64,000 nucleotides of DNA, taken from the sequence record NC_054906.1; one strand, 5' to 3'. The DNA is from Enterobacteria phage RB18. How positions within the stretch are numbered: the stretch's first letter is position 1; every line of letters begins with the position of its first letter. A program made the translations under genes and the position numbers. The notes beneath the pieces were generated by a model. It made no database searches, had not been told where the DNA came from, and worked only from the letters and a program-made list of their open reading frames with translations. Shown here piece after piece: positions 801-38,048 of this stretch.

Positions 801-1377
801 ATTCTCTACATTCCTTAACAAATTTTTCTAATAATAAATCGCTTTCAAAATTGGGATTTTCTACGAATTTATCAAAAAGATCATCAACAATAGTTAAGAT
901 ATTCTTTTTACTAAGAATACGTTTATTTTCATGCTTCGTTTCAGAATCAACTATAAGAGTAAAGAAATATTTCTTGCCCTGAAATTTTACAGTAGTATCA
1001 ATATAGAATAAATTTGACTTTTGTAAATTACGTTTAAACCATGCATCACTTAAACTATAAACGCCAAGATAATCATAATCGTCGTTTAAATAACAGACCG
1101 TCCATTCAGGAGAAACAAAATCAGTAAATTCAACATCAAAATCACATGTCAATGAATGAATTGATTCAATACTGTTAATAAGTATTCCAGGACGTATTAA
1201 AGACTTTTTACCTCTAGAAAATCTTCCAGAAAGACTTTCATCAGTTTCATATGAAGAACCCCAATAATAATTACGTCCTTCTGCCATACGTTTAAGAGCA
1301 TTTAATAATTGGTCTGGAACATCAACTTGTCTTTGGAATTCTTCAAACATTGAATTGAAATCACTTTGCATTTTCAT
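769..1377 (-). CDS. hypothetical protein (202 aa)
   Basis: Long ORF with ATG start in a same-strand gene array; no recognisable motif. Confidence 0.5.
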   Translation of the reverse strand: MKMQSDFNSMFEEFQRQVDVPDQLLNALKRMAEGRNYYWGSSYETDESLSGRFSRGKKSLIRPGILINSIESIHSLTCDFDVEFTDFVSPEWTVCYLNDDYDYLGVYSLSDAWFKRNLQKSNLFYIDTTVKFQGKKYFFTLIVDSETKHENKRILSKKNILTIVDDLFDKFVENPNFESDLLLEKFVKECREYVKTITIPSK

Positions 1378-1418: not shown

Positions 1419-2012
1419 TTATTTCAGAGAATTAATATATTCCTGAACATCGGCAGAGGTAGTTTCAACCCCAGAAATATTACCATTAAAGGTTTCAACT
1501 CGAGCAAGAGTATCTTCAATATCAACCTTAGTCAGTGCTGCAATTTCAACTACATCATCGGCAGTACTAATTCCGAGGTCATTCGCGGCGCGAGTTTCAC
1601 GGATATATTCCAATTTAACTGCAAGTTCTTGGCGAGCATCATCTAACTCAACTACTTTCTTGGCGATTTCAATTCGCATTTCAGCATAACCATCAGCTTT
1701 AGTAGTCAACTGCTCAGCTGTTCGACGATATAGTAAACCAAGTTTAGCATGCATTGTTACATCTTGACCTTCCGAAAGAAGCTTGCGAATTTCACGCTCT
1801 TTTGATTCGGCCTGCTTATTCTTTTCGACAATAAGTTCACGAATACGCTTTTCTTCATTAATAGATTTAACAGAAGCAGTTTTTAGATCTTTAATCTTAT
1901 CAAGTAGTTTTGCTGCTGCAGCAGTATACTGTTCTTCAACAGATAGATTTTTAGCCATAGCAGAACCAAGTTTAGTGCGAATAAACTCAACAATTTTCTT
2001 CAGTGTGTTCAT
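1419..2012 (-). CDS. coiled-coil protein (197 aa); PspA/IM30-like character is speculative
   Basis: ATG start with AAGGAAA Shine-Dalgarno; highly charged helical heptad-like sequence throughout. Confidence 0.5.
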
Positions 2013-2965: not shown

Positions 2966-3439
2966 TTATTTGATTTGTTTAGCAGACCAAATGCGGTCTT
3001 TAATAATTTTTTGGATGTCTTCAACATACTCTAGGTCATGAGCATGTGGGTTATCTTTAAAACTATAAGCACGAGCTAACTTTTGACCTTCAGTTTTGAT
3101 TACTAAAAGCTCTTTAAGGATAGCTTCATATCTGGAGATAATTCCTTTAACAATATTTTTTTCTTGTGTAGCTTTAGGATCTGCTTTAGGAGCAGGTTTA
3201 CCCGAAGCCTTTGCAAAAGCAGCGCCAGTAGCAACTAAACTTTTCCAGGCCATACTAACTGCATTCCCTGTAAATCCTTCGGCTTTCATATCACGAGCAA
3301 ATTGGAATCGTGATTCATCGGAAGCATCTTTATAGGAATATTTACCCGCGGCAATGGCTGCTTTTGCGACAGCTTGAATTTCGGTGCTAGATGCTTCATT
3401 TAACACCGCTTCATTTAAAAATTGAGCATATGATTTCAT
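2966..3439 (-). CDS. capsid-targeted internal protein candidate (N-terminal CTS-like leader MKSYAQFLNE|A)
   Basis: N-terminus resembles the T4 internal-protein capsid targeting sequence with an L-x-E cleavage motif for prohead protease; own TATAAATA late promoter and AGGAAA Shine-Dalgarno; Ala/Lys-rich. Confidence 0.55.
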   Translation of the reverse strand: MKSYAQFLNEAVLNEASSTEIQAVAKAAIAAGKYSYKDASDESRFQFARDMKAEGFTGNAVSMAWKSLVATGAAFAKASGKPAPKADPKATQEKNIVKGIISRYEAILKELLVIKTEGQKLARAYSFKDNPHAHDLEYVEDIQKIIKDRIWSAKQIK

Positions 3440-3475
3440 CTTATTTCCTGTTTTAATTCGTGGTTTTAATATACT

Positions 3476-3483
3476 TATTTATA
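3476..3483 (-). promoter_or_regulatory. T4-type late promoter TATAAATA (minus strand) for ORF 2966..3439
   Basis: Exact TATAAATA on minus strand, about 37 nt upstream of the ATG, directly after a terminator. Confidence 0.5.
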
Positions 3484-3513
3484 CCAAAAAGCCCCAACCT
3501 TTCGGTCGGGGCT
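3484..3513 (-). terminator. rho-independent terminator (minus strand) after the tRNA-like RNA
   Basis: Minus-strand hairpin AGCCCCGACC-GAAA-GGTTGGGGCT followed by TTTTTGG; paralogous to 2928..2958. Confidence 0.6.
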
Positions 3514-3564
3514 AAGCCTTGCGGCAACCTTGTCGGGGTTCCACCTGCTAAGGCAAGTGTTTGT

Positions 3565-3656
3565 ACGAAACGCCGGGATTCGAACCCGGTTATTAAGCAG
3601 TTGACGCTACTTAATATTTTTAAAAGGCCATATCTCGACCATATCCGAACGTTCCG
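3565..3656 (-). ncRNA. tRNA-like small stable RNA (T-arm and acceptor stem present, no canonical anticodon arm)
   Basis: Minus strand has T-arm CCGGG-TTCGAAT-CCCGG and a 7-bp acceptor-like pairing CGGAACG/CGTTTCG, but the internal region does not fold as a standard cloverleaf; T4-type phages encode such stable RNAs next to the tRNA cluster. Confidence 0.4.
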
Positions 3657-3822
3657 TCAAAAACGCTACTCGGCTTACGGCAAAGATATTTCCTCGAATC
3701 GATAATTCGGTGCGCCGTTTCTGCTGTGATGTAAGAGGGCATCAATAAACGCAAAGATTATTAACGCAATTCCTTACTCAGGGAACATCAGTCCGACGAC
3801 TTACCGGTAGCGACCCGGTTTC

Positions 3823-4173
3823 TTAATATTCTTTTAAAGCATCAATCTGCTCACGGCGTTTACGCCACAAATCAATTGCTTCATACGCGGATTCAGCATT
3901 TCGAATTAGCCGGCATTTATGTAAAGACTTATGATTTTGATATTGTGTAGATAACGGAATTTTATCTAAAAGGTCTTTACGTTCAAAGTATTCGTAACCA
4001 TCTAAGCCAAATGAACGATTTTTAAGAAATTGCCAATGACCATATTCGTTTTCGATATAAACATAATCTGCGTGCTGATAAAGCAAATTAATTACGCGTT
4101 CAGAAATAACAGTGTCATTGTGATTAAAATAGAATGTTAAATCATGAACTACTAAATAAACATTACCTTTCAT
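3823..4173 (-). CDS. hypothetical protein (116 aa) within the tRNA region
   Basis: ORF with ATG start between the tRNA-like RNA and tRNA-Arg. Confidence 0.5.
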   Translation of the reverse strand: MKGNVYLVVHDLTFYFNHNDTVISERVINLLYQHADYVYIENEYGHWQFLKNRSFGLDGYEYFERKDLLDKIPLSTQYQNHKSLHKCRLIRNAESAYEAIDLWRKRREQIDALKEY

Positions 4174-4191
4174 ATTTTCCTCACTTATAAT

Positions 4192-4267
4192 TGGTCGAGG
4201 CAGTAGGGATCGAACCTACGACCCAGGACTTAGAAGGTCCTTGCTCTTCCTTCTGAGCTATGCCCCG
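4192..4267 (-). tRNA. tRNA-Arg (anticodon UCU)
   Basis: Hand-folded cloverleaf: acceptor CGGGGCA/TGCCTCG, D-stem GCTC/GAGC, anticodon loop CTTCTAA, T-loop GGTTCGATCC, encoded CCA. Confidence 0.8.
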
Positions 4268-4271
4268 TAAT

Positions 4272-4347
4272 TGGGGTGACCGATGGGAGTCGAACCCATG
4301 ACTACGAGAATCACAATCTCGAGTTCTACCAACTGAACTACGGCCAC
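4272..4347 (-). tRNA. tRNA-His (anticodon GUG)
   Basis: Hand-folded cloverleaf: acceptor GTGGCCG/CGGTCAC, anticodon loop TTGTGAT, T-loop GGGTTCGACTCCC, encoded CCA. Confidence 0.75.
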
Positions 4348-4461
4348 ATTAATACCTACTCCAACAATCAAGATGTCTTCACACGAAATTAAGAGAAGAG
4401 TGATCAGTTCAACCCTTATAATCGCGTCAAGTAGATATTAATGTGACAGTTGTCACAAATT

Positions 4462-4536
4462 TGGCGGACGTGATAGGATTCGAACCTATAACCAATCGCT
4501 TAACAGGCGATCGCTCTGCCATTGAGCTACACATCC
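4462..4536 (-). tRNA. tRNA-Asn (anticodon GUU)
   Basis: Hand-folded cloverleaf: acceptor GGATGTG/CACGTCC, anticodon loop CTGTTAA, T-loop AGGTTCGAATCCT, encoded CCA. Confidence 0.75.
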
Positions 4537-4540
4537 AAAT

Positions 4541-4627
4541 TGGTGGGGAGTGATGGAGTCGAACCACCCGAGTCGCAATGACAATGGATTTACAGTCCAC
4601 ACCGCTACCTCTACGGGATAACTCCCC
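4541..4627 (-). tRNA. tRNA-Tyr (anticodon GUA), class II with long variable arm
   Basis: Acceptor GGGGAGT/ACTCCCC, anticodon stem-loop GTGGA-CTGTAAA-TCCAT, 15-nt variable arm, T-loop GGTTCGACTCC, encoded CCA. Confidence 0.75.
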
Positions 4628-4633
4628 TTAATT

Positions 4634-4708
4634 TGGTGGCCCTGGGTGGAATTGAACCACCATCTGGCGATTATGAGTCGCTTGCTTGAACCTTCCAGCT
4701 ACAGGGCC
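4634..4708 (-). tRNA. tRNA-Ile (anticodon CAU, Ile2/lysidine type; Met not excluded)
   Basis: Acceptor GGCCCTG/CAGGGCC; anticodon stem-loop GCGACTCATAATCGC is the Ile2-type context; encoded CCA. Confidence 0.7.
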
Positions 4709-4709
4709 T

Positions 4710-4785
4710 TGGTGCTGATTGACGGAATCGAACCGCCGACCTTCTCATTACAAGTGAGTTGCTCTACCTATTGAGCTAAATCAGC
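4710..4785 (-). tRNA. tRNA-Thr (anticodon UGU)
   Basis: Acceptor GCTGATT/AATCAGC, D-stem GCTC/GAGC, anticodon loop CTTGTAA, T-loop GGTTCGATTCC, encoded CCA. Confidence 0.8.
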
Positions 4786-4790
4786 AAAAC

Positions 4791-4880
4791 TGGCGGAGGC
4801 GATAGGATTTGAACCTATGAGTCGCCGGAGCGACTGCCGGTTTTCAAGACCGGTGCATTAAACCACTCTGCCACGCCTCC
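4791..4880 (-). tRNA. tRNA-Ser (anticodon UGA), class II with long variable arm
   Basis: Acceptor GGAGGCG/CGCCTCC, anticodon loop CTTGAAA, long variable arm, T-loop GGTTCAAATCC, encoded CCA. Confidence 0.8.
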
Positions 4881-4886
4881 AAATAT

Positions 4887-5537
4887 TTATATATTGTTAA
4901 TTTGATTTAGAATTCTTTTTGCTTGAGTATGACTTACGCCAATATGCTTAGCATATTTAGACAATTCGCCACGTTTAGAAAAATCATATAATTTAGAAAT
5001 TTCTATTCTTCTTTTTCTTTCATCCGCAGAAACTTTTGCTTCGTTCGCTTTTGCTATTTTACGTTTAGCTTCTTGAGAATGAGTTTTACCAGCAAAGCCA
5101 TTCTTCATTAATCCATTTGAAGACCATCCTTTTAATTTTCCGTTAGAATGTGCCTTTTTAACACCCAATGAAATTAATTCGCGCTGCTGATCTGTCATAG
5201 GATAATTATTTATATGGTCCCATCCACCTTCACCTCCAAGTTTTAAATTATACACATCTGGTCTATTTAAAAACTCTTCTGTGACAATATTTTTCTCGGC
5301 TTCAAGCATAGATTCTTTATCGTCAAAATACTCTAATATTTCTTTAGAAAAATTTTCTATACCATATTTATCTTGGGCTCTTTTTAATAATTTACCAGAA
5401 CCCATATATCCATCATCTAAATTTTCGGTAGAATGCACACCAATATAAATTTTATTATTAATTTTATTTGTTATTTTATAAAGATAAAAATGCATATCAG
5501 TCCCTAATAAAGAACTGAGCGTCTCACGACGAGTCAT
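4887..5537 (-). CDS. segB: GIY-YIG homing endonuclease SegB-like, inserted within the tRNA cluster
   Basis: N-terminal GIY-YIG signature YLYKITNKINNKIYIGVHS...GYMGSG; basic C-terminal DNA-binding-like region; sits between tRNA-Gly and tRNA-Ser as segB does in T4-type phages; true start may be the internal ATG at 5495, which has a better Shine-Dalgarno. Confidence 0.8.
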   Translation of the reverse strand: MTRRETLSSLLGTDMHFYLYKITNKINNKIYIGVHSTENLDDGYMGSGKLLKRAQDKYGIENFSKEILEYFDDKESMLEAEKNIVTEEFLNRPDVYNLKLGGEGGWDHINNYPMTDQQRELISLGVKKAHSNGKLKGWSSNGLMKNGFAGKTHSQEAKRKIAKANEAKVSADERKRRIEISKLYDFSKRGELSKYAKHIGVSHTQAKRILNQINNI

Positions 5538-5541
5538 AAAT

Positions 5542-5615
<74 letters not shown>

Positions 5616-5620
5616 AAATT

Positions 5621-5707
5621 TGGTGCGAGAAGTGGGACTCGAACCCACAAGGAAATCATTCCGCAGCATTTTAAGTGCTGTGCCTTTACCAATTTGACCA
5701 TTCTCGC
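5621..5707 (-). tRNA. tRNA-Leu (anticodon UAA), class II
   Basis: Acceptor GCGAGAA/TTCTCGC, anticodon loop CTTAAAA, long variable arm, T-loop GGGTTCGAGTCCC, encoded CCA; abuts tRNA-Gln as a Gln-Leu dimer. Confidence 0.8.
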
Positions 5708-5708
5708 G

Positions 5709-5781
5709 CTGGGAATAAAGGACTCGAACCTTTGCATCCTGGAATCAAAATCCAGTGCCTTACCAACTTGGCTAATTCCCA
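5709..5781 (-). tRNA. tRNA-Gln (anticodon UUG)
   Basis: Acceptor TGGGAAT/ATTCCCA, anticodon stem-loop CTGGA-TTTTGAT-TCCAG, T-loop AGGTTCGAGTCCT; CCA not encoded. Confidence 0.8.
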
Positions 5782-5793
5782 ATTATTAACAAA

Positions 5794-5811
5794 GGCTCTC
5801 AAATAAGAGCC
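5794..5811 (-). terminator. hairpin plus T-run (minus strand) between ORF 5868..6392 and tRNA-Gln
   Basis: Minus strand GGCTCT-TATTTG-AGAGCC followed by TTTGTTAATAATT. Confidence 0.4.
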
Positions 5812-5867
5812 CTTGATGATAGAGGGTATTAATCAGTGCGGTATGAGTTAATAATAACAAATAATTC

Positions 5868-6392
5868 TTAAAGCAAATTAAACATTTTAACGGTCGGCAA
5901 AACAATTTCTTTTTCTATATAAGAGTATTTAACACTCTCAACTACGCGCAGAAAATCATAATCATAATATTCAGAAGCACTGCCTAAAATATTAATAAGT
6001 CCTTCAAGCACTTTATTACAATTCACAAAGAATAAGTCAAATACACGTTCTTCATCTTCTTCAGATTTATTACCAAGGTCAACTTCTATATCAAAGACCT
6101 TTTTAATGAATTCTGGATAAAGCTGGTCTGAGAACAGTCCTTCAACCAAGTATTCATAGATAAAAAGCGATTGCTCGCTGAACAAGCCATTACCACAATA
6201 ACGTTCAGCTTTAGTACTAGAATGTCTGCTTTTAAACTTCTTTAAAAGATATTGGAACTGTAAGATTTCATGCTCTTCTACGCCAAACAGTGTTTTAGTT
6301 TTATAGTTGTCACCATCATTTTCCCAGGTAGTGACATCAATTACGTAACCCTGCGGAATTGTAGTACCTAAACAAATATTCATTTTCACCAC
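5868..6392 (-). CDS. hypothetical protein (174 aa)
   Basis: ORF in minus-strand array upstream of the tRNA cluster. Confidence 0.5.
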   Translation of the reverse strand: MVKMNICLGTTIPQGYVIDVTTWENDGDNYKTKTLFGVEEHEILQFQYLLKKFKSRHSSTKAERYCGNGLFSEQSLFIYEYLVEGLFSDQLYPEFIKKVFDIEVDLGNKSEEDEERVFDLFFVNCNKVLEGLINILGSASEYYDYDFLRVVESVKYSYIEKEIVLPTVKMFNLL

Positions 6393-6682
6393 GCTGCATT
6401 AATATAAGTATATTTAATACATTCAAGACTTAAAGGATTCTTGAAAATATCATATTCAAGAGGACCTTTTTCTGTTTCAATAAAGAAATCAAAATTTACT
6501 GTATTAAATTTACGGTCTTCCTTCACTAATTTAACCTGAGAAGATGAACGGTCAATGTAAACCTTTTCAACTTCAAAACATGTTAAAATGCCATAATCAT
6601 CAATCAAGGCTTTAGCTGCTTCTTGATCATATTTATATCCATTTTCAATGGACGATACTTTCGCATAAAGTATCATTATCAA
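6386..6682 (-). CDS. hypothetical protein (98 aa)
   Basis: ORF with short start/stop overlaps to both neighbours. Confidence 0.5.
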   Translation of the reverse strand: MIMILYAKVSSIENGYKYDQEAAKALIDDYGILTCFEVEKVYIDRSSSQVKLVKEDRKFNTVNFDFFIETEKGPLEYDIFKNPLSLECIKYTYINAAW

Positions 6683-7089
6683 CCTCTATCAACAATAGCA
6701 TGAGTATGGGCATTTACGATTTGCCACCAGTCGAAACGATTGGAACCATAATCTGGTTTATTTTCATTTTCTTTAATGATATCACGCAGTTTATCTTCTG
6801 TTTCAGCATACGCAATTAAATCATCATATCCACCGCAAGGATAATAATTATCACCTGCGAATAAAAGAAAATTTACCTTAGATGGATTTACGTAATAATG
6901 GTCTTTAGGATATTTAGTTCCTCTCCAATCAGTTACTTCAACATAACGGTAAGAAAATCCATTTTTACTTTCAATCCAACTCCACGCTTCAAAAGGAGTA
7001 TTAAAAACTTTATCAGGTATTAAATTACCTTCAAAATGAGAAGGATTTGCATAATCCCCGGCATAAACATAATATTCGTTAATACTCAT
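6679..7089 (-). CDS. hypothetical protein (136 aa)
   Basis: ORF with ATGA-type overlap to the downstream gene. Confidence 0.5.
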   Translation of the reverse strand: MSINEYYVYAGDYANPSHFEGNLIPDKVFNTPFEAWSWIESKNGFSYRYVEVTDWRGTKYPKDHYYVNPSKVNFLLFAGDNYYPCGGYDDLIAYAETEDKLRDIIKENENKPDYGSNRFDWWQIVNAHTHAIVDRG

Positions 7090-7275
7090 TTATTCACCTT
7101 TAGAAATTTTATCCATAACGATAGCGATTAAACCAATTAAAAATGCTACTACAAGCGAAAACACATTTTCTGCTGTAGTTAATAATCCGCATATAAATCC
7201 AACAAACATTGAAAAACTAAAAGCGGAAGCAGAAATTGCAATAGCAACATTTCGAATTAATTCACAACGTTTCAT
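7090..7275 (-). CDS. hypothetical small hydrophobic protein (61 aa)
   Basis: Single long hydrophobic segment SAFSFSMFVGFICGLL...VVAFLIGLIAIV; early-type promoter element immediately upstream. Confidence 0.45.
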   Translation of the reverse strand: MKRCELIRNVAIAISASAFSFSMFVGFICGLLTTAENVFSLVVAFLIGLIAIVMDKISKGE

Positions 7276-7303
7276 TTTATTCTCCTCGGTAGTTGATAGG
7301 GTA

Positions 7304-7333
7304 ATAGTATCACTACCCTATCTAAAAGTAAAC
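7304..7333 (-). promoter_or_regulatory. early-type promoter element (minus strand: -35 GTTTAC, 18-nt spacer, -10 TACTAT)
   Basis: Minus strand GTTTACTTTTAGATAGGGTAGTGATACTATTACCCTATCAA; shares an identical 24-mer with the copy 300 bp upstream. Confidence 0.45.
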
Positions 7334-7567
7334 TTATTTTTTACGAAAAATTGATTTATATTTATCAGCCCATTTCTCAATGACTTTTGCCGGGCCATAG
7401 ATAACAAAGTAATCGCCAAACTCTTCACCACCGAGTTGACCGAAATCATCTAATGCATCACGAAGAACTCCATGAGGCATTTCACCCATTTTATCTTTCT
7501 TGCCAGTGTAAATAAACTCAACTTTTACATCAGCAGTTTCAGCAATAAATTCTTGATACGTTTTCAT
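7334..7567 (-). CDS. ipI: internal protein I-like capsid-targeted protein (CTS leader MKTYQEFIAE)
   Basis: ATG at 7567 with GGAG Shine-Dalgarno (track ORF starts at an upstream GTG); N-terminus is the internal-protein capsid targeting sequence with L/I-x-E cleavage motif; position between 57B and the tRNA region matches the ipI locus. Confidence 0.7.
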   Translation of the reverse strand: MKTYQEFIAETADVKVEFIYTGKKDKMGEMPHGVLRDALDDFGQLGGEEFGDYFVIYGPAKVIEKWADKYKSIFRKK

Positions 7568-7603
7568 TTTGTTCTCCAATTTCACATTTGTTTTGATAGG
7601 GTA

Positions 7604-7633
7604 ATAGTATCACTACTAAAACCCCATGTAAAC
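7604..7633 (-). promoter_or_regulatory. early-type promoter element upstream of the ipI-like gene (minus strand: -35 GTTTACA, 17-nt spacer, -10 TACTAT)
   Basis: Minus strand TTTAAAATAATTTCACAAAGTTGTTTACATGGGGTTTTAGTAGTGATACTATTACCCTATCAA. Confidence 0.45.
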
Positions 7634-7645
7634 AACTTTGTGAAA

Positions 7646-8330
<685 letters not shown>

Positions 8331-8331
<1 letters not shown>

Positions 8332-9056
8332 TATAGTACCTTTAGTGTATTTTTAATTTTAGAAAAAAGTTCTTCAAGAGAACCATCGTTTGTAATTACT
8401 AAATCGCCATCACGAATTGGCAATCCAGCTTCTGTAATATGAGTATCATTGGATTTTTGACCAGGACGAACTACATGAATTACTGTAGCACCCATCGCCC
8501 TAGCCGCATCCATTTCATGATCTTGACGAGTATCAGGAACGATATAATAATCATAACCTGAGTTAAATTTATCAAGATAATCTAAAGCAAATAATTTTAC
8601 CCAGTACATGCGGTCGAAGTTATTAACAATCAAATCCGTACCTAGGGCTTGCATCAGACGACGGACTGACCATTGATCTTCAATATTATTTATAACGTCA
8701 GTAATTTTGTTAAATGCTACGAAATTAACTGATTCTTTTCCTTCGTCATCAAAAACAAACACACCTTTAATTGGGCTTTTACCATTAAGATAGCAAAATG
8801 CTTGTTCCATAATCGTGATTACTTCTAATTTAGTCAGATTTAAATTAGTCTCACGATCATAGTCAATTCCTTCAAACTCTTTACGAGTTAAGCAAGGATA
8901 GTCAGTGTTTGCTGCAAATACTCCCCATGCATAAGCCAATGCATCCTTAATAGGACCAGCAAGTTGATATTTAACTGCAGAATAATTGCTCATGATAAAA
9001 TCAGCAGTAGTATCTTTTCCACTACGCTTTACACCGCTTAAAAAGATTAGTTTCAT
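8331..9056 (-). CDS. 1: gp1 deoxynucleoside monophosphate kinase (241 aa)
   Basis: P-loop GVKRSGKDT near N-terminus; start refined to the ATG at 9056 with GAGGAG Shine-Dalgarno; size equals T4 gp1. Confidence 0.9.
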
Positions 9057-36145: not shown

Positions 36146-36570
36146 TGCTTCTGATCCCTGAAACTCATGAATTAGTTCTCGAGAATGTCGAAGCACTTAT
36201 TCCTGAAGCACAGGGTCGCTTTGACGAATTGTCTTCTGCTTTAAATAAAGACGATATAAATACAATTGTCGAGAATATGCTTGATGATGAAACTGATTTA
36301 GCGGTTGCATTAGCTTCTATTAATGAAAATATGCCGTTAAATGAATTTATCGTTAAACATGTTTCCGCCCGTGGTGAAATTACTCGCACTAAAGACCGCA
36401 AAACGCGTGAACGTAATGCATTTCAAACCACTGGGCTGTCTAAAGCAAAACGTAGACAAATTGCTCGTAAAGCTACCAAAACGAAGATTGCCAATCCAGC
36501 AGGTCAATCTCGTGCTCAGCGTAAGCGTAAAAAAGCTCTTAAACGCCGTAAAGCATTAGGATTAAGCTAA
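36145..36570 (+). CDS. 68: gp68 prohead core protein (141 aa)
   Basis: Size and order match T4 gp68; basic C-terminus. Confidence 0.9.
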
Positions 36571-37208
36571 TGAATGAACCCCAATTACTAATTGAAACTT
36601 GGGGTCAACCTGGCGAAATTATTGATGGCGTACCAATGCTTGAATCTCATGATGGAAAAGACTTAGGTTTAAAACCGGGTTTATACATCGAAGGAATATT
36701 CATGCAAGCGGAAGTTGTCAATAGAAATAAACGTCTTTATCCAAAACGTATATTAGAAAAAGCGGTAAAAGACTATATTAATGAGCAAGTTTTAACTAAA
36801 CAAGCTCTCGGAGAATTAAATCATCCTCCACGCGCTAATGTTGACCCGATGCAAGCCGCTATCATTATAGAAGATATGTGGTGGAAAGGAAATGACGTAT
36901 ACGGACGAGCTCGTGTTATTGAAGGTGACCATGGTCCTGGAGATAAATTAGCAGCTAATATTCGTGCCGGATGGATTCCAGGAGTTTCTTCTCGTGGATT
37001 AGGTTCATTGACTGACACAAATAAAGGTTATCGTATCGTAAACGAAGGATTCAAATTAACTGTAGGTGTTGATGCAGTATGGGGTCCAAGTGCTCCAGAT
37101 GCATGGGTAACTCCTAAGGAAATTACCGAATCACAGACGGCGGAAGCCGATACAAGTGCCGATGACGCCTATATGGCTCTCGCAGAGGCCATGAAAAAAG
37201 CGTTATAA
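36570..37208 (+). CDS. 21: gp21 prohead core scaffold and protease (212 aa)
   Basis: Size and order match T4 gp21. Confidence 0.95.
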   Translation: MNEPQLLIETWGQPGEIIDGVPMLESHDGKDLGLKPGLYIEGIFMQAEVVNRNKRLYPKRILEKAVKDYINEQVLTKQALGELNHPPRANVDPMQAAIIIEDMWWKGNDVYGRARVIEGDHGPGDKLAANIRAGWIPGVSSRGLGSLTDTNKGYRIVNEGFKLTVGVDAVWGPSAPDAWVTPKEITESQTAEADTSADDAYMALAEAMKKAL

Positions 37209-37238: not shown

Positions 37239-38048
37239 ATGCTTAAAGAACAACTGATTGCCGAAGCGCAGAAAATTGATGCTTCCGTTGCTCTTGATAG
37301 TATTTTCGAATCAGTTAATATTTCTCCGGAAGCAAAAGAAACTTTCGGCACTGTATTCGAAGCTACCGTCAAGCAGCACGCCGTTAAATTAGCTGAATCT
37401 CATATCGCTAAAATTGCTGAAAAAGCAGAAGAAGAAGTAGAAAAAAATAAAGAAGAAGCCGAAGAAAAAGCTGAGAAGAAAATCGCTGAGCAAGCTTCTA
37501 AATTCATTGACCATCTTGCGAAAGAATGGCTCGCTGAAAATAAATTAGCAGTTGATAAAGGCATCAAAGCCGAACTGTTTGAATCCATGCTTGGTGGATT
37601 AAAAGAGCTCTTTGTTGAACACAACGTTGTTGTTCCAGAAGAATCAGTTGATGTTGTAGCTGAAATGGAAGAAGAGCTGCAAGAACATAAAGAAGAATCA
37701 GCTCGTCTGTTCGAAGAACTCAATAAGCGTGACGCATATATCAATTATGTGCAGCGTGAAGTGGCATTGAGCGAAAGTACTAAAGATCTGACTGAGTCTC
37801 AAAAAGAAAAAGTCTCTGCTCTGGTCGAAGGTATGGATTATTCAGATGCATTCTCAAGTAAATTGAGTGCAATCGTAGAAATGGTGAAGAAATCTAATAA
37901 AGATGAAAGCACTATTACTGAGAGTATAAATACTCCTGATACTGAAGCAGCCGGACTGAATTTCGTCACTGAAGCTGTAGAAGATAAAGCTGCACAGGGT
38001 GCAGAAGATATTGTAAGTGTATATGCGAAAGTCGCATCTCGTTTCTAA
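37239..38048 (+). CDS. 22: gp22 major prohead scaffolding core protein (269 aa)
   Basis: Glu/Lys-rich helical protein; size equals T4 gp22. Confidence 0.95.
   Translation: MLKEQLIAEAQKIDASVALDSIFESVNISPEAKETFGTVFEATVKQHAVKLAESHIAKIAEKAEEEVEKNKEEAEEKAEKKIAEQASKFIDHLAKEWLAENKLAVDKGIKAELFESMLGGLKELFVEHNVVVPEESVDVVAEMEEELQEHKEESARLFEELNKRDAYINYVQREVALSESTKDLTESQKEKVSALVEGMDYSDAFSSKLSAIVEMVKKSNKDESTITESINTPDTEAAGLNFVTEAVEDKAAQGAEDIVSVYAKVASRF

Follow-up and report, generated by a model that had tools for sequence, protein, structure and literature searches.

The open reading frame located on the minus strand at positions 7334–7567 of the analyzed DNA (a stretch of 64,000 nt from Enterobacteria phage RB18, NC_054906.1, hereafter called the window) is almost certainly ip6, a named internal-protein gene of the T-even phages. 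The explanation that best accounts for our observations, and that we regard as likely, is that ip6 is an anti-defense cassette gene whose product is packaged by means of a capsid targeting sequence (CTS), processed by the prohead protease gp21, and injected into the host. Gene, name and leader have all been described before, as has the variability of the locus, and public databases already contain the exact protein; the window sequence itself adds little, and its remaining value is as a pointer to the question of the Ip6 target.

Identity and distribution of Ip6

The window comes from a Tequatrovirus genome, and its first 25 kb are ~97% identical to the BASEL phage TadeuszReichstein and to several other phages. 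The product of the open reading frame, a protein of 77 residues (MKTYQEFIAETADVKVEFIYTGKKDKMGEMPHGVLRDALDDFGQLGGEEFGDYFVIYGPAKVIEKWADKYKSIFRKK), matched the PHROG 8111 family, "internal virion protein", over 77 of the 77 profile positions (E = 3.9e-51). In phage JK1, whose DNA is 99.5% identical in this region, the corresponding CDS is annotated as Ip6 and encodes a 100% identical protein; annotated proteins of KIT03, slur07, PhiZZ23, JLBYU22 and A2 are also 100% identical, and the exact Ip6 sequence was found on 33 public contigs with several accessions. A tblastn search with Ip6 returned 249 phage records, 17 of them with at least 99% identity, and the matches labeled ip6 or ipVI include those of VR7, VR25, PST, GiZh and JK08. 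The Ip6 protein of VR7 (UniProt E5FII6) is 87% identical to the window protein. In the classical phage T6, ip5 is followed by a CDS annotated as 'Ip6', whose product shares 63 of 77 residues (82%) with the window protein; both have the same length, the same leader and the same cassette position next to trna.4, and their residues 1–40 are identical.

The full-length open reading frame is conserved across Tequatrovirus and Gaprivervirus (the 249 records), and some genomes of Gaprivervirus and Karamvirus have distant copies (35–46% identity) in the same position. Judging by the sequence collections searched, the Ip6 family is very small and restricted to Tevenvirinae: searching 5.8 billion clustered proteins yielded 11 clusters, and a search with a profile over 1.84 billion representatives gave six matches, one of them spurious, with four to five genuine ones at E ≤ 0.001. 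In both searches, the relatives came only from T-even phages. The spurious match, a repeat protein of 419 aa, came from profile positions 6–22. A Pfam search with the Ip6 protein found no family, and a phmmer search against all PDB sequences found only chance fragments of DyP peroxidases (E of at least 0.067).

Expression signals and start codon of ip6

The gene and the signals that precede it are the following:

7334–7567, minus strand: ip6 coding sequence, 77-residue precursor plus stop codon (ORF listing, PHROG 8111, annotated identical proteins)
7574–7577, minus strand: Shine–Dalgarno sequence GGAG, 6 nt 5′ of the ip6 ATG (read from the sequence)
7593–7633, minus strand: early-promoter module of ip6, repeat copy 2, with a −35 element GTTTACA and an extended −10 element TGATACTAT (promoter scan, direct repeat D1)

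The ATG corresponds to positions 7567–7565 and the TAA stop codon to positions 7336–7334. An earlier note on this DNA, made from its sequence alone, had given the coordinates of the reading frame exactly, but not its strand. The promoter scan revealed a T4-type early promoter (TTTACA-17-TACTAT with TG, positions 7632–7604), and the GGAG aligns with the Shine–Dalgarno sequence of every other gene at the 57B–trna.4 locus. ip6 is a real, constrained and conserved gene, equipped with a promoter and a Shine–Dalgarno sequence. The T4 late-promoter box TATAAATA was not found within positions 7300–8400 (~800 nt upstream of ip6), and T4 ipI likewise has no TATAAATA box upstream. The early promoter is the only one visible for ip6, which we count against the explanation that we favor.

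In some GenBank records, the gene starts at a GTG codon located at position 7585, 18 nt 5′ of the ATG, which yields a form of 83 aa. We rejected this start because it lacks a Shine–Dalgarno sequence, whereas the ATG at 7567 is preceded by GGAG at the right spacing, and also because the leader must be N-terminal, as it is in all the other ip genes; for these reasons, the 77-aa form was taken as correct. In the upstream alignment, the homologous ATG is the start codon of every other gene of the locus.

The leader of Ip6 and its predicted processing

The features related to the packaging and maturation of Ip6 are listed below:

7538–7567, minus strand: capsid targeting sequence MKTYQEFIAE, codons 1–10, ending in the gp21 motif I-A-E (identity to T4 IPII and IPIII)
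7334–7537, minus strand: predicted mature Ip6*, residues 11–77 (67 aa, 7.7 kDa, pI 6.5), plus stop codon (computed from the sequence)
36570–37208, plus strand: gp21 prohead protease, trans-acting, expected to remove the Ip6 leader (Pfam Peptidase_S77, E = 1.5e-111)
37239–38048, plus strand: gp22 scaffolding core protein, which takes in CTS-bearing proteins during assembly (Pfam T4_CASP, E = 1.7e-89)

The first ten residues of Ip6, MKTYQEFIAE, are exactly those of both T4 IPII and T4 IPIII, and belong to the MKT(Y/F)(Q/K)EF... type by which internal-protein leaders are recognized; the N-terminus of T4 IPI reads instead MKTFKEFTSTTTPVSTITE (MKTFKEFTST...ITE). When a degenerate DNA pattern representing this leader was searched for, the 64 kb window had a single match, and 100 shuffled sequences had none. 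The identity with the IPII and IPIII leaders bears out the earlier proposal of an internal-protein gene with a canonical CTS; the accompanying statement that the leader equals the T4 internal-protein CTS is right for IPII and IPIII and wrong for IPI. Apart from gp21 and gp22, the portal protein gp20 and the capsid protein gp23 are also encoded in the window.

In established T4 biology, gp21 recognizes the site L/I-x-E and cuts after the Glu residue, and a leader of 10 residues is sufficient for targeting to the head, as reported by Mullaney and Black. The sole [L/I]-x-E site of Ip6 is I8-A9-E10, and we infer that the leader would be cleaved after Glu10; with this cut, the mature part has the 67 aa that had been assigned to it previously. 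That foreign proteins can be encapsidated by means of the CTS is confirmed in a review (PMC3012670). The mature protein would carry 12 K+R versus 12 D+E residues and would be near neutral, with a pI of 6.5 versus 9.0, 9.6 and 9.65 for the basic IPI*, IPII* and IPIII*, respectively; hence, Ip6 may not behave like those three proteins. IPII and IPIII share the 10-residue leader with Ip6, but they are encoded at the other internal-protein (IP) locus, denV–e, their mature parts are unrelated to that of Ip6, and they are larger, basic proteins of 90 and 183 aa.

Predicted structure of Ip6

The AlphaFold2 model of Ip6, obtained from a shallow family alignment, had a pLDDT of 82.9. It comprises the leader helix (residues 4–11) followed by a β-strand (13–20), an α-helix (34–40), two β-strands (46–49 and 54–59), an α-helix (60–69) and a last β-strand (74–76), and it includes a long loop formed by residues 21–33 (GKKDKMGEMPHG) that is invariant in the family. 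The predicted order of the mature protein, β-α-β-β-α-β, corresponds to a generic ferredoxin-like arrangement. When a BFVD model of VR7 Ip6, produced independently, was superposed on this model, the TM score was 0.97; a Foldseek search of the model against the PDB gave nothing below E = 0.02. The fold of IPI* has been described as two β-sheets with N- and C-terminal helices flanking them (PMC3012670), and comparison of the predicted model with this description makes a moderately strong case that Ip6 does not have the IPI* fold.

Cassette organization of the 57B–trna.4 locus

ip6 is located between 57B and trna.4, which is one of the two IP loci and the slot occupied by ipI in T4. The borders of this locus in the window are as follows:

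7646–8101, minus strand: 57B, the anti-CBASS phosphodiesterase Acb1, upstream neighbor and conserved left border (Pfam PF23474, E = 2.6e-60)
7293–7333, minus strand: second copy of the promoter module, which serves trna.4 and forms the downstream border of the ip6 cassette (direct repeat D1)
7090–7275, minus strand: trna.4, a predicted membrane protein of 61 aa, downstream neighbor and conserved right border (PHROG 1692, E = 6e-35; T4 annotation)

The direct repeat D1 has 41 nt, and its two copies (7293–7333 and 7593–7633) are 300 nt apart. We aligned the 95 nt upstream of each gene of the locus from T4, T2, T6, teqskov, 303Ecol101PP and the window, and observed that the same promoter/Shine–Dalgarno module of ~75 nt is present 5′ of ipI, ip5, ip6, ip7 and trna.4; it reads ATTTCACAAAGTTGTTTACA, ~10 nt, GTAGTGATACTATTACC, a short spacer, GGAG or GGAA, and AAAATG. 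In the pairwise DNA alignment with T4, near-identity continued up to and including the promoter that follows 57B and resumed from the next promoter into trna.4, while the coding body between the two promoters was unalignable to T4 DNA. The gene content of the locus in the phages compared was the following:

T4: 57B–ipI–trna.4
Window, JK1 and PaulHMueller: ip6 alone between 57B and trna.4
T6, GiZh, teqskov and Killian: ip5–ip6 between 57B and trna.4
T2: ip5–ip7 between 57B and trna.4
303Ecol101PP: ipI–ip6 between 57B and trna.4
VR25: gp156–ip9–gp154–ip6, four CTS-bearing ORFs between 57B and trna.4
ECML-359: five tandem CTS-bearing ORFs between 57B and trna.4

These differences in content between phages agree with the earlier description of this site as the hypervariable ipI locus. 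In every multi-cassette locus examined, the cassette adjoining trna.4 is ip6 or a distant homologue of it (in T2, the order is ip5–ip7). The figure of five tandem ORFs in ECML-359 is reached because two ORFs that lack annotation were counted in. In the sequence of this locus (L004, Escherichia phage ECML-359), one of them occupies positions 857–1156 (+) and encodes a CTS-bearing product of 99 aa, MQTFHEFLVE..., without annotation in GenBank, and the other, at positions 1501–1755 (+), encodes a distant Ip6-like product of 84 aa that begins with MKTYQEFINEAADAKVEF.

ip6 is a self-contained cassette formed by an early promoter, a Shine–Dalgarno sequence, a CTS and a variable body. Arbiol et al. 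(2010) attributed the plasticity of both IP loci to promoter elements that mediate shuffling (PMC2839356), and cited more than 30 known IP variants; promoter/stem-loop elements at both IP loci were reported by Repoila et al. (1994), as related by Arbiol et al. (PMC2839356). The borders of similarity between the window and T4 fall within the modules, which fits this shuffling proposal, and from the arrangement of the sequences we infer that recombination between the repeated promoter modules could add, remove or swap a cassette. The PeSL-type cassettes of the hyperplastic regions of T4-type phages resemble ip6 in that each small accessory gene lies between copies of an intergenic module that contains a promoter, and in that these copies mark the limits of the insertions or replacements by which phages differ. 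However, the elements of RB49 and phi1 consist of a sigma-70-like promoter and a G/C stem-loop, whereas the ip6 module has a promoter of the T4 early type and at most a weak AT-rich stem.

An Ip6-like gene with 36% identity and the leader MKTYQEFMAE was found in Enterobacter phage vB_EhoP_ZX13, a Karamvirus (locus sequence L005, positions 1501–1737, +). This gene and the end of 57B overlap by 4 nt, without an intervening promoter module, which suggests that Ip6 was already at the locus before the cassette arrangement of Tequatrovirus arose. As a separate observation, Acb1 is a known counter-defense gene that directly abuts the ip cassette array, and 57B is called 'RNA ligase' in many records.

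Two C-terminal types of Ip6

Nine loci were included in the evolutionary comparison, and the medians for ip6 were obtained from 36 pairs. The median dN of ip6 was 0.095 and its median dS 0.38, with a dN/dS of 0.25; positive selection in ip6 was sought by means of dN/dS, and none was demonstrable. Within Tequatrovirus, the proteins encoded by 57B and trna.4 hardly vary (median dN of 0.003 and 0.000, respectively, and dS of ~0.08–0.10): that of 57B is identical in eight phages of differing ip content, and that of trna.4 in the Tequatrovirus loci compared.

When the window protein was compared with T6 Ip6, 14 of the 14 differences were located within residues 41–70, which in the Ip6 model map to the β2–β3 hairpin and helix 2. 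Two C-terminal types can be distinguished, one represented by the window (GGEEFGDYFVIYGPAKVIEKWADKYK, ...GGEEFGDYFVIYGP...) and the other by T6 (AAEDYGDKIVVTGPAAIIEKWAAENK, ...AAEDYGDKIVVTGP...). Judging by the tblastn identity bands, the type present in the window appears to be the minority one, the T6 type being commoner. The variable C-terminal block has a dS of ~1 and a dN/dS of ~0.24, values that point to an old allelic divergence together with recombination, and not to recent positive selection. In phage PaulHMueller (locus sequence L009, positions 1301–1534), residues 1–45 are of the window type, including D41, and residues 46–77 are of the T6 type; this mosaic indicates that the two allele types recombine inside ip6.

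Possible function of Ip6

In the mechanism that we favor, the 77-aa precursor would be directed by its 10-residue leader into the scaffolding core formed by gp22, gp21 would cut after Glu10 (I-A-E/T), and the resulting compact α/β protein of 67 aa would stay in the head with the DNA and be injected at the start of infection, as can be expected from established T4 biology. By analogy with Ip1, Ip2 and Ip3, the injected Ip6 would then bind and inactivate a host defense acting on the incoming glucosyl-hmC DNA. We consider the packaging and processing of Ip6 very likely, even though our search of the literature with phage terms found no proteomic or experimental record of Ip6 in virions, which counts against packaging; a role as an anti-defense factor is the function towards which we lean, and it is possible, although doubtful, that its target is an enzyme of the GmrSD family.

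Each of the proteins Ip1, Ip2 and Ip3 blocks a different GmrSD enzyme, without cross-protection (Silas et al. 2025, PMC12373910); in these comparison systems, IPI inhibits GmrSD-CT596, IPII inhibits GmrSD-ECOR21, and IPIII inhibits GmrSD-ECOR17. It has also been argued that the two IP loci as a whole are devoted to countering the very diverse GmrSD family (PMC12373910). When ip4–10 were assayed against GmrSD variants, no reproducible inhibition was observed (Silas et al. 2025, PMC12373910, Supplementary Fig. 9, where the Ip6 variant used is not stated), so the GmrSD enzyme recognized by Ip6, if any, would be a variant outside that panel. The panel consisted of 8 active systems from 15 groups (PMC12373910), and thus most of the GmrSD diversity lies outside the screen. 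Despite having Ip6, T6 remains subject to restriction by GmrSD-ECOR21 and GmrSD-ECOR17 (PMC12373910); this restriction and the negative result for ip4–10 both count against the mechanism that we favor.

A serious alternative, to which we grant a chance well short of even, is that Ip6 is packaged and injected but has a target outside the GmrSD family, either another defense that acts early or a host factor. This possibility is consistent with the negative result of the published GmrSD panel for ip4–10, with the near-neutral charge of Ip6, unlike the three characterized inhibitors, and with the presence of the neighboring Acb1, which indicates that this stretch of the genome holds counter-defense genes directed against unrelated systems. 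On the other hand, the three internal proteins whose target is known (3/3) hit GmrSD enzymes, the authors of the screen assigned both IP loci to that family (PMC12373910), and the screen itself covered only the 8 active systems from 15 groups mentioned above. In a more specific and slightly more tentative version, the injected Ip6 would inhibit either a non-GmrSD defense or an unsampled GmrSD clade, and its two C-terminal types (residues 41–70) would recognize different variants of the target. If such two-type recognition is true, Ip6 represents a natural specificity-swap pair.

Several characteristics of Ip6 bear on the search for its target. It is among the commonest internal proteins of T4-like coliphages (249 records, including T6), and such phages are present in therapy collections. 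Its N-terminal half is invariant, and it has two old C-terminal types that recombine. In addition, ip6 stacks with other ip cassettes and does not replace them.

It seems unlikely that Ip6 is merely a structural component that fills the head or condenses the DNA and has no role after injection. T4 heads do hold ~1000 molecules of internal proteins within the DNA, with lysines touching the phosphates (PMC3012670), and Ip6 has 10 lysines; however, the mature protein has approximately no net charge (12 K+R vs 12 D+E), which is poor for DNA neutralization. Moreover, ip6 is present in about one-third of the related genomes (249 records vs 725 that match the DNA of the locus) and is freely swapped with unrelated proteins, a pattern of patchy presence and exchange that is typical of accessory counter-defense genes and not of a structural necessity.

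Relation of Ip6 to T4 IPI

T4 IPI and Ip6 occupy the same chromosomal slot, are preceded by the same promoter/Shine–Dalgarno module, are small, and have related leaders that end in I-x-E; the delivery of IPI is presumably the same as that of Ip6. These similarities could be taken to mean that Ip6 is a specificity variant of IPI, with shared ancestry and fold, whose target is a GmrSD similar to that of CT596. The sequence comparisons make this very improbable and already refute it at the level of homology. A BLASTP alignment of Ip6 with T4 IPI covered only residues 1–16, and when the first 12 residues of Ip6 were removed, no match to IPI, IPII, IPIII, Ip5, Ip7 or Ip9 was obtained, the only matches being to Ip6-type proteins. 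IPI has a 19-residue leader and a mature part of 76 aa with a pI of 9.0, versus the 10-residue leader and the 67 aa with a pI of 6.5 of Ip6. The strand and helix order predicted for Ip6 also differs from the description of IPI* (PMC3012670); no phage internal protein was among the matches listed in either of the two PDB fold searches, and no T4 internal protein was among the BFVD matches.

Phage 303Ecol101PP encodes an IPI identical to that of T4 (96 of 96 positions), and ip6 is located immediately after it. Since both genes coexist in tandem in this phage, they are not alleles of each other in genetic terms. The earlier note had treated the gene as an ipI allele, and this part of it must be replaced by a non-homologous, separately named gene, ip6. 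Its suspicion that the mature part differs from IPI proved correct, as no match remained without the leader, and identity to T4 IPI over the mature region, which it had named as the observation that would go against it, was looked for by BLASTP and not found. IPI is also larger, as the note stated, with a precursor of 95 aa and a mature form of 76 aa. The assay against GmrSD-type restriction that the note suggested corresponds in practice to the published screen of ip4–10 (PMC12373910), and the different type IV specificity that it envisaged is a conjecture.

The idea that the ORF is a chance reading frame or a decaying remnant, to which the lack of a Pfam family and the tiny size of the family (only four to five genuine matches at E ≤ 0.001 in the profile search) could lend some credit, is practically negligible and already refuted by conservation, given the full-length ORF in 249 genomes of Tequatrovirus and Gaprivervirus and the distant copies in Karamvirus, the dN/dS of 0.25, the promoter and Shine–Dalgarno sequence of its own, and the confident fold prediction.

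Other features of the window

An ORF of 157 aa located at positions 2966–3439 on the minus strand, between e.8 and the tRNA cluster and outside both recognized IP loci, starts with MKSYAQFLNEAVLNE, a CTS-like sequence with two protease-type L-x-E sites (Glu10 and Glu15). The region upstream of it, up to position ~3545, includes a GC hairpin with a run of T and the T4 late-promoter box TATAAATA. The product matches PHROG 2280, a family of unknown function, and was found in 510 phage records; among the 25 matches listed, all the annotated ones are described as hypothetical or 'Phage protein'. Homologues that keep the leader-like N-terminus are present in the Mosigvirus SF (MKSYAEFLTE) and the Jiaodavirus Nispero (MKFKEFLAE). 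Both have a hairpin upstream, accompanied by the exact TATAAATA box in Nispero and by a near match, AATAAATA, in SF. These sequence features suggest that this ORF may represent an unrecognized family of head-packaged proteins.

The tRNA genes of the window, identified with ARAGORN at positions 4192–5781 (minus strand), correspond to Arg, His, Asn, Tyr, Met, Thr, Ser, Gly, Leu and Gln, in contrast with the Arg, Ile, Thr, Ser, Pro, Gly, Leu and Gln tRNAs of T4. No tRNA-Pro was detected by ARAGORN within positions 3000–8000 of the window. A GIY-YIG homing endonuclease (4887–5537, minus strand; PHROG 314, E = 1.5e-55) lies inside the cluster, between tRNA-Ser and tRNA-Gly, at the place where T4, T2 and JK1 have tRNA-Pro; this position differs from that of T4 segB, which is located between tRNA-Arg and tRNA-Ile.
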